64,000 nucleotides of DNA from an uncultured Gammaproteobacteria bacterium (GCA_964448725.1 CAYVAJ010000003.1:17867-81866); one strand, 5' to 3'. Shown: positions 50,408 through 50,881, counted from the first letter of the stretch. Notes: generated by a model from the letters alone, not told the origin. A program made the numbers and translations.

Positions 50408-50431
50408 GTATCGTAGTCTAGTCTACGATAC
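50408..50431. repeat. 24-bp 9-6-9 palindromic site GTATCGTAG-TCTAGT-CTACGATAC (copy 1)
   Basis: Identical to the copy at 50858..50881; abuts the stop codon of the 50431..50841 gene. Confidence 0.9.
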
Positions 50432-50841
50432 TATCGTTTTACATCTTTTCTTTTAAAACCAGAATACGTTTTCTTCTTGAATATCAGTTTTGACCCTCCG
50501 GTCAAATTATATTTCTTTGTATTGTATTCTCTTTCAACTTTTTCTGCACGTCTTTCGATAAGATCAAAGCAATGGGGATTCTTTTCTATACTTTTAGTAA
50601 CTGAGGCTATTGTATTTTTTCCTACATGTAATAAATTCGTTATTTCATCAAGTGTTAGTCCTGCTCTTATTTGCTCTGCAATAAGTATTCTCCGCCCAAT
50701 TTTCATTCTTTCATCATGCGTGAATAATCCATTTAAAATCTGTTCTACTTCCTCACCATCTTTGGCTGCAAGAAGGGCATTACGGAGTTTATTTAAAGCC
50801 TCATACACATCTTCCTGTGGTAAAAAATTATATCTATTCAT
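50431..50841 (-). CDS. TrpR/YerC-YecD-like HTH DNA-binding protein
   Basis: ...ILNGLFTHDERMKIGRRILIAEQIRAGLTLDEITNLLHVGKNTIASVTKSI follows the YerC/YecD (TrpR-related) pattern; inserted between recA and recX. Confidence 0.5.
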   Translation of the reverse strand: MNRYNFLPQEDVYEALNKLRNALLAAKDGEEVEQILNGLFTHDERMKIGRRILIAEQIRAGLTLDEITNLLHVGKNTIASVTKSIEKNPHCFDLIERRAEKVEREYNTKKYNLTGGSKLIFKKKTYSGFKRKDVKR

Positions 50842-50857
50842 TACAGTTCTGTAAATT

Positions 50858-50881
50858 GTATCGTAGTCTAGTCTACGATAC
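50858..50881. repeat. 24-bp 9-6-9 palindromic site (copy 2), 17 nt upstream of the YerC-like gene start
   Basis: Exact duplicate of 50408..50431 in direct orientation (26 bp identical including the TA extension). Confidence 0.9.

Follow-up and report, generated by a model that had tools for sequence, protein, structure and literature searches.

Why should a small regulatory gene lie between recA and recX, enclosed by two exact copies of one palindrome? The question is raised by a stretch of 64,000 nucleotides (GCA_964448725.1, CAYVAJ010000003.1:17867-81866; the window, below), in which a gene for a 136-amino acid helix-turn-helix protein, here designated T, is flanked on both sides by the exact 26-nt repeat GTATCGTAGTCTAGTCTACGATACTA, at 50408-50433 and 50858-50883. 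A preliminary description of the locus had put forward a small site-flanked cassette moved by a recombinase and, as an alternative, operators of the encoded repressor that tune read-through from recA to recX. Comparison with related loci favors the alternative: both palindromes are probably operators of T that enclose T's own gene, though the binding itself is deduced from patterns in the sequence. The palindromes belong to T and not to recA or recX, since the same site-gene-site arrangement accompanies T in many other gene neighborhoods.

Gene T and its flanking palindromes

The gene encoding T (50431-50841, PF01371 Trp_repressor) lies on the minus strand together with recA on its 5' side (50916-52025; PF00154, 445 bits, and TIGR02012, 529 bits) and recX on its 3' side (49916-50395), the latter with all three RecX domains (PF21982, PF02631 and PF21981); these domain matches confirm that a co-oriented gene of 136 amino acids stands between recA and recX. 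The stretch running from recA through T to recX shows 0 differences over 571 nt across four independent read-set assemblies, and the arrangement is therefore not an assembly artefact.

The upstream palindrome, O-up (50858-50883), and the downstream one, O-dn (50408-50433), both putative operators, each score 31.2 with a motif matrix built from relatives. Their 24-mer core, GTATCGTAGTCTAGTCTACGATAC, is found at 50408-50431 and 50858-50881, where two perfect copies had been described around the helix-turn-helix gene; none would be expected (100 shuffles), and the identity even reaches 26 nt. A search for further copies had been suggested; within the 64 kb the motif matrix gives just the two known sites. 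In gene orientation the unit reads TAGTATCGTAG-ACTAGA-CTACGATAC. The upstream 24-mer is separated from the ATG of T by 16 nt rather than 17, and O-dn does not abut the TAG stop codon of T but starts with it and overlaps it, ending 12 nt before the ATG of recX; the ribosome-binding sequence of recX read from the sequence, GAGGAGG (50400-50406, minus strand), lies between O-dn and that ATG. Each site had been drawn as 9-bp arms around a 6-bp spacer, the architecture of a recombinase core. This is misleading, since the central CTAG is itself palindromic, and each site is better described as a palindrome of 24-26 bp with a single symmetric A.A mismatch at position +/-3. When the window is aligned with its closest relative, locus L001 (94% identity for RecA, 72% for T and 83% for RecX), the palindrome cores are the sole conserved blocks in both spacers. 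Relative to base composition, no palindromic tetramer of the window is more depleted than CTAG, with 62 observed and 214 expected, a count that is 0.72 of the Markov expectation. A dispersed palindrome of the repetitive extragenic palindromic (REP) type was considered and rejected, as there are only two copies in 64 kb.

T matches PF01371 with 38.2 bits over residues 15-92 (cutoff 27), and a match to this family is precomputed for nearly all T homologues. It scores 20.6 bits with the TrpR equivalog TIGR01321 (cutoff 67.25) and 27.7 bits with the YerC/YecD (HisR) model TIGR02531 (cutoff 42.2), falling below both cutoffs. A profile of 120 homologues reaches the YerC/HisR-type structures 3KOR, 3FRW and 3G1C at E ~1e-8 and, with the same profile, E. 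coli TrpR at E ~1e-3. An AlphaFold2 monomer model (predicted local distance difference test score, pLDDT, of 93) contains six helices and a C-terminal beta-hairpin, residues 111-126, that is not present in the YerC/HisR and TrpR structures. The best Foldseek matches to the model are 3KOR, 3G1C, 3FRW and E. coli TrpR, including TrpR-operator complexes, with target-normalised TM-scores of 0.56-0.84; as modeled, T has the all-alpha TrpR fold with its D-E helix-turn-helix. In an hhalign comparison, residues 34-90 of T fall onto TrpR 37-94 with a probability of 95%, and the helix-turn-helix shows 33% identity over 57 residues. The near-invariant T77 of T corresponds in this alignment to TrpR Thr81, T41 and R51 to Thr44 and Arg54, and the variable positions 75, 76, 79 and 80 to Ile79, Ala80, Thr83 and Arg84, all four of which are among the DNA-contacting residues of TrpR (PMC9413887). 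The equivalents of TrpR Arg69 and Arg84 are not conserved in the T family.

T is neither TrpR proper nor HisR, but represents a distinct subfamily of the candidate phyla radiation (CPR) with a C-terminal extension; literature searches found no description of this family. Its homologues are found in Candidatus Levybacteria and in further Microgenomates of the CPR, namely Woesebacteria, Daviesbacteria and WWE3. They make up a compact family (15 clusters at 50% identity when E <1e-30 is required, 57 when E <1e-10 is), and the protein is kept at 50-70% identity across the superphylum. The records of L001, L003-L007 and some other loci are titled "uncultured Gammaproteobacteria" or "Saccharibacteria"; given their gene content and the similarity of their T, RecA and RecX to those of Levybacteria/Microgenomates, these labels look wrong.

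The module in other genomes

T-encoding loci, 57 altogether, were taken from species-representative genomes, and the window is counted among the 56 modules compared. The same element of ~20-28 bp, a palindrome of 24 bp centered on CTAG, occurs on both flanks of T in 47 of the 56, the median spacing being 9 nt to the ATG on the upstream side and 11 nt from the stop codon on the downstream side. The association is specific to T: within 60-nt flanks, a score of 12 or more is reached by 30 of 53 T genes and by 2 of the 229 control genes from the same loci (p = 1.5e-14), and with 130-nt flanks the rate for control genes is 10/203. The upstream site ends 0-16 nt, and usually 3-16 nt, before the start codon of T, which has no ribosome-binding sequence. 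The downstream copy is present whether the next gene is co-directional (31 of 36 modules) or convergent (15 of 18), and is thus not simply the operator of a downstream promoter. TAG stop codons are in mild excess among T genes (19/52, versus 66/326 for other genes).

The consensus of 44 CTAG-type sites is GTACCGTTGACTAGTCAACGGTAC, with the information concentrated at C-2, T-1, A+1 and G+2 and at C-8, G-7 and T-6 together with their mirror positions. Loci L014, L027, L022, L040 and L032 have two CTAGs 8 bp apart (CTAG-N4-CTAG), L003 belongs with the first four of them to a clade of this spacing, and L014 and L027 carry CTAGTCGACTAG, which shares 10 of 12 bases with the E. coli trp operator core CTAGTTAACTAG, a sequence contained in the TrpR operator consensus TGTAcTnGTnnACnAgTACA (PMC9413887). 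The paired sites of one module match at a median of 19/24 positions, versus 13/24 between modules (p = 1.4e-9), and the pair in the window is the most alike of all (24/24). Paralogous modules in one genome, on the other hand, carry different palindromes, such as TATCCGTGCACTAGTGCACGGATA in L021 versus GATACAGTGCACTGTATC in L050, which match at 2/24 positions in register; for L014 and L043 the figure is 3-15/24. Because the sites co-vary by module and differ between paralogues, the factor that reads them should be encoded in the module, and T is the sole protein encoded between the two sites. Variants of the recognition helix track the site types, a relation that is confounded with phylogeny: residues 75-80 are K/R-N-T-I-x-S where the site is of type CGTnGACTAGACnACG, x-x-T-V-M-H where there are two CTAGs 8 bp apart, and L-P/T-T or M-S-T where the centers are ACTGTA. 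The pattern suggests that the recognition helix of T fits lineage-specific operators.

The surroundings of the module vary greatly. There are one or two copies of T per genome, nine genomes holding two paralogues, and a recA/recX context was seen, among the fetched loci, only in L001, L009, L021 and L042; in L047 recA is near T in divergent orientation. The remaining T loci fall into about ten gene neighborhoods, the commonest in Levybacteria being RecJ (on the opposite strand), the CCA-adding enzyme, T, optionally an ATP-binding cassette (ABC) transporter or MetK, and then YqeY, while elsewhere T stands between RseP and Frr-RecR, between GatD and GatCA, or next to UppS. The preliminary description had reasoned that gene and palindromes found together between recA and recX in all relatives, with the palindrome occurring nowhere else, would speak for a fixed regulatory hairpin; they do occur together in relatives, but mostly outside the recA-recX gap, from which it follows that the unit has relocated during evolution. 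A link to DNA repair as a general rule, for which the site at recR in L048 and the RecJ near T in Levybacteria had been considered, was rejected: the neighbors are functionally mixed, and four relatives of L048 have no site before recR.

A few loci depart from the usual layout. In L048 the second palindrome is an exact inverted copy of the first (3474-3497 and 4639-4662), 24/24 including the non-symmetric flanks, and is placed after frr, just before recR, with only a degenerate remnant after the T stop; its relatives L031, L033, L034 and L043 keep the usual position of the downstream site. L034 has, between its downstream palindrome and frr, a purine-rich, imperfectly repetitive stretch (3985-4140; units GGATGAGGAT and GGGGTGAGG) that is absent from its close relative L048. 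L004 contains three copies of TTAGTGCCGTAGTCTATACTACGGCACTAA, at 3310-3420, 3930-3965 and 4528-4560; the one upstream of T is split centrally by ~80 nt of non-coding DNA, while the other two, identical to each other, bracket a gene for a 179-amino acid nucleotidyltransferase-like protein downstream of T.

Such variety of position is what would be expected if the palindromes were Xer/dif, pdif or attC-type sites and the unit between them were moved by a tyrosine recombinase, the reading given first place in the preliminary description. It would account for the presence of the unit in about ten contexts including the recA-recX gap, for the shift of T among close Levybacteria from between the CCA-adding enzyme and the ABC transporter to between the latter and YqeY, for the patchy occurrence of the recA-T-recX arrangement on both the T tree and the RecA tree, and for the L004 locus, in which a gene other than T is bracketed by identical palindromes and a further copy is split. 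The sites themselves, however, argue against it. Their center is the palindromic CTAG, leaving no asymmetric crossover region of 6-8 bp such as Xer/dif sites have, and many relatives have gapless perfect palindromes; where the center is asymmetric, it points the same way in both copies in 17 loci (direct) and opposite ways in 10 (inverted), yet T is never inverted with respect to conserved neighbors. Since the paralogous modules of one genome differ, no single host recombinase could serve them, and T occurs only once or twice in a genome. The 20 open reading frames of 250-400 amino acids in the window (two of which have no Pfam match) did not include an integrase, and none was seen among T's neighbors. 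T homologues were absent from the phage, plasmid and IMG/VR viral-contig collections searched. Uninterrupted recA-recX junctions, for which the preliminary description proposed to look, do exist in relatives (L058, L063, L064, L080-L082 and L096), but none has a palindrome, solo site or scar; there is likewise no solo site at the alternative T positions of the Levybacteria locus, and both contigs with an identical RecX also carry T, with no empty-site contig. An integron attC cassette in particular was rejected, attC sites being 57-141 bp long, with imperfect inner and outer repeats and a single attC per cassette beside intI and attI, whereas those of T are of 24-26 bp, lie on both sides and have no integrase nearby. 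With palindromic centers, module-specific sequences, mixed orientations and neither a recombinase among the open reading frames searched nor a solo or empty site, movement as a dif-, pdif- or attC-like cassette is very improbable.

How T came to lie in the recA-recX gap is a separate matter. T is missing from the gap in L058 and L096, which on the RecA tree stand closest to the window/L001 pair and to the L009/L021 group, respectively, and on the T tree the T of the window nests among those of Levybacteria with the CCA context while that of L009/L021 groups with another paralogue; both are neighbor-joining trees of short or few sequences, weak and not decisive. They nevertheless point to a patchy distribution, with T probably having arrived in the gap repeatedly. 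The gap also takes up other DNA. Of 58 recX loci from metagenomes that have recA upstream, 37 leave no more than 200 nt between the two genes and eight have inserts of more than 400 nt, of which one (L099) is T and the rest are other genes; unrelated genes were seen between recA and recX in L068 (584-1255), L047 (555-1322), L062 (2581-2973), L093, L094 and L112, that of L068 coding for an IS200/RAYT-like protein with the HUH-type motif NHIHFL, as judged by eye. Inserts so varied indicate that the gap tolerates insertions, and it seems to be a recurrent insertion point; their presence in other lineages, the IS200/RAYT-like gene included, might be counted in favor of the cassette as well.

Possible roles of the palindromes

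If the palindromes are operators, T would be a homodimeric helix-turn-helix repressor of the TrpR/HisR type that binds both of them. The upstream site, between the likely promoter and the ATG, would provide negative autoregulation; the downstream site, which begins at the stop codon and forms part of the same unit, would most likely block the passage of polymerase as a bound roadblock or insulator, or else anchor the far end of a repression loop of ~450 bp. With the sites occupied, less transcription would pass from recA to T or, starting from recA or T, reach recX, the gene for a RecA inhibitor; as both sites are inside the transcription path from recA to recX, T would also gate recX. Binding is probably modulated by a small molecule, in the way that TrpR responds to tryptophan and HisR to histidine. 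We infer DNA binding by T, the sign of the regulation, the part played by the downstream site and the ligand from the fold of T, the constant site-gene-site architecture and the co-variation of sites by module.

Several observations weigh against this proposal. Simple autoregulation does not explain a second site after the stop codon in 15 of the 18 modules with convergent neighbors, nor does operator function require copies so much alike, the pair in the window agreeing at 26/26 positions including the asymmetric ones. The right arm CTACTGA, which breaks the symmetry, recurs in both copies of L001 even with the center flipped; such shared symmetry-breaking changes point to copying between the sites, and the patterns in L001, L048 and L004 would fit quasi-palindrome copying by gene conversion or template switching. 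The upstream site is close to an ATG without a ribosome-binding sequence, and no promoter for T could be placed with confidence by a consensus scan, the matches being weak or implausible. A weak candidate, ATAACA, 16 nt, TAAAAT (50892-50919, minus strand, 9/12), would place the transcription start a few nt before O-up, though with 11 such matches in the region versus 6.4 expected it is not significant alone. The best match, TTTACA, 17 nt, TATAAT (50855-50827, minus strand, 11/12), straddles the start of T and was set aside as probably a by-product of coding, its -10 box lying in conserved Arg-Tyr-Asn/Lys codons; a TATAAA stands at the matching position of 10 of 33 relatives, and 50827-50855 might still act as an internal promoter. 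Finally, apart from three extra sites no site was found away from T in the ~440 kb scanned. These three, in L004, L022 and L048 (~377 kb of related loci, 44-site matrix), are all within 1.2 kb downstream of T. With so few sites T would control hardly anything apart from its own gene, an odd situation for a protein so well conserved throughout a superphylum.

Alternatively, the palindromes might act as hairpins in a recA-T-recX transcript, in processing, in stabilizing the T message or in masking its start, either as separate 5' and 3' stem-loops or through a long-range duplex between the copies, with or without binding by T. Each copy folds into a stable hairpin (-13 to -14 kcal/mol; z-score -4 to -6), and one in the upstream copy, so near a start codon with no ribosome-binding sequence, would influence initiation. 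The indifference of the downstream copy to the orientation of the next gene is what a 3' stem-loop would show, and complementarity is held at positions without base preference, such as +/-5. Yet the mismatches in imperfect sites (33 of G.U type, 21 of A.C type and 84 others) have no sense-strand G.U bias, many sites pair at only 7-9 of 12 positions, and the best conserved part, the two-fold symmetric CTAG center, would remain unpaired in the loop. On the sense strand the sites are not followed by a U-tract; T-runs follow them on the antisense strand only, and an intrinsic terminator was accordingly rejected. In Rfam the palindromes matched no family even at E up to 1, the only hits being two tRNAs. 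An RNA role would also leave unexplained why a module-specific, trp-operator-like sequence stands beside a gene of TrpR fold, and we regard it as unlikely, although an additional effect at the RNA level is conceivable.

A further possibility is that T does not bind the palindromes at all, and that these are structural: hairpins or cruciforms that work as factor-independent bidirectional insulators or terminators, shielding gene dosage, and that are kept alike by template switching and gene conversion. The shared symmetry-breaking changes and the flipping center are hallmarks of template switching in quasi-palindromes, and the independence of the downstream copy from the neighboring gene is again accommodated. 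It leaves without explanation, however, the conservation of C-2, T-1, T-6 and G-7 across distant lineages, the resemblance to the trp operator, and the exclusive association with a gene of TrpR fold (the 30/53 versus 2/229 given above), and the sites lack the U-tracts of intrinsic terminators; this explanation is quite improbable.

A more ambitious form of the operator proposal, which we consider doubtful, is that the whole is a portable, self-contained CPR module in which T bound at both ends forms a loop or roadblocks and insulates its own gene from the surrounding operons; the module would have been relocated repeatedly, and in at least two lineages would have settled between recA and recX, there making RecX, and hence RecA activity, depend on the ligand of T. 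In its strongest form T itself would promote the copying or relocation of its flanking sites, which is conceivable.

Among the other features of the window, a cytidine deaminase gene (49515-49919, plus strand) and recX overlap tail to tail by 4 nt (49916-49919), so that no terminator can sit between them. There are two tRNA genes, at 29-112 (minus strand) and at 52198-52268 (plus strand), the latter on the strand opposite to recA and ~170 nt upstream of it. Some 4-7 kb from recA, genes for an apurinic/apyrimidinic (AP) endonuclease (Nfo-type TIM barrel), an HhH-GPD glycosylase and RNase Y follow one another at 56443-59413, a small cluster for DNA repair and RNA turnover.

Comparison with known systems

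To our knowledge, almost nothing is known of the transcription factors of the CPR/Patescibacteria, which cannot be grown alone. The present locus offers a specific and testable protein-DNA pair, a 136-amino acid protein of TrpR fold and a palindrome of 24-26 bp, with dozens of natural specificity variants, in an unusual and conserved layout that places one putative operator ahead of the start codon and a second one behind the stop codon and that may reveal how genes are insulated in compact genomes. In the window the module occupies the place at which RecX is tuned against RecA in other bacteria and, if the portable-module proposal is true, would represent a CPR-specific control of recombination. 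It is also a cautionary case, in which identical palindromic direct repeats around a small helix-turn-helix gene mimic a cassette and yet are probably better explained as the gene's own operators.

E. coli TrpR has the same fold as T, which conserves the equivalents of its Thr81, Thr44 and Arg54, and the trp, aroH and trpR operators are built on ACTAG/CTAG, one T clade having the trp-operator-like CTAG-N4-CTAG. TrpR also represses its own gene. T differs in having 136 amino acids, with an extra N-terminal segment and the C-terminal beta-hairpin, and in that most of its sites have a single central CTAG within a 24-bp palindrome and lie on both sides of the gene; there are no trp genes in any T neighborhood. 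The closest characterized relative is HisR (B. subtilis YerC), which includes the closest solved structures and best profile matches, 3KOR, 3FRW and 3G1C. B. subtilis YerC is the histidine repressor HisR, with palindromic operators of 20 bp whose consensus is lineage-specific; about half of the hisR genes have their own site upstream, and HisR is often autoregulated (PMC9413887). The HisR operator consensus, cacTTTAnnnnnnTAAAgtg (PMC9413887), is nevertheless unrelated to the T motif GTACCGTTGACTAGTCAACGGTAC, HisR proteins have fewer than 100 amino acids where T has 136 and a conserved C-terminal extension, and the second site after the stop codon is described for T modules and not for hisR. 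His genes and histidine transporters are absent from the neighborhoods of T.

The modules resemble pdif modules and integron cassettes in that a short gene lies between two sites of ~24-28 bp with inverted arms, in varied contexts, but unlike pdif/Xer elements the T sites lack an asymmetric center, are specific to the module and not to the host, and vary in relative orientation. The pairing of identical sites, set some hundreds of bp from each other and surrounding the controlled unit or lying within it, recalls two-operator repression by looping or roadblock, as with lac O1-O2 and gal OE-OI; the T sites differ in that they enclose the regulator's whole coding sequence and are kept in dozens of lineages whatever the neighbors. 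In the recA-recX context, lastly, the position of the putative control site has a parallel in E. coli, where recX expression is limited by a terminator between recA and recX.

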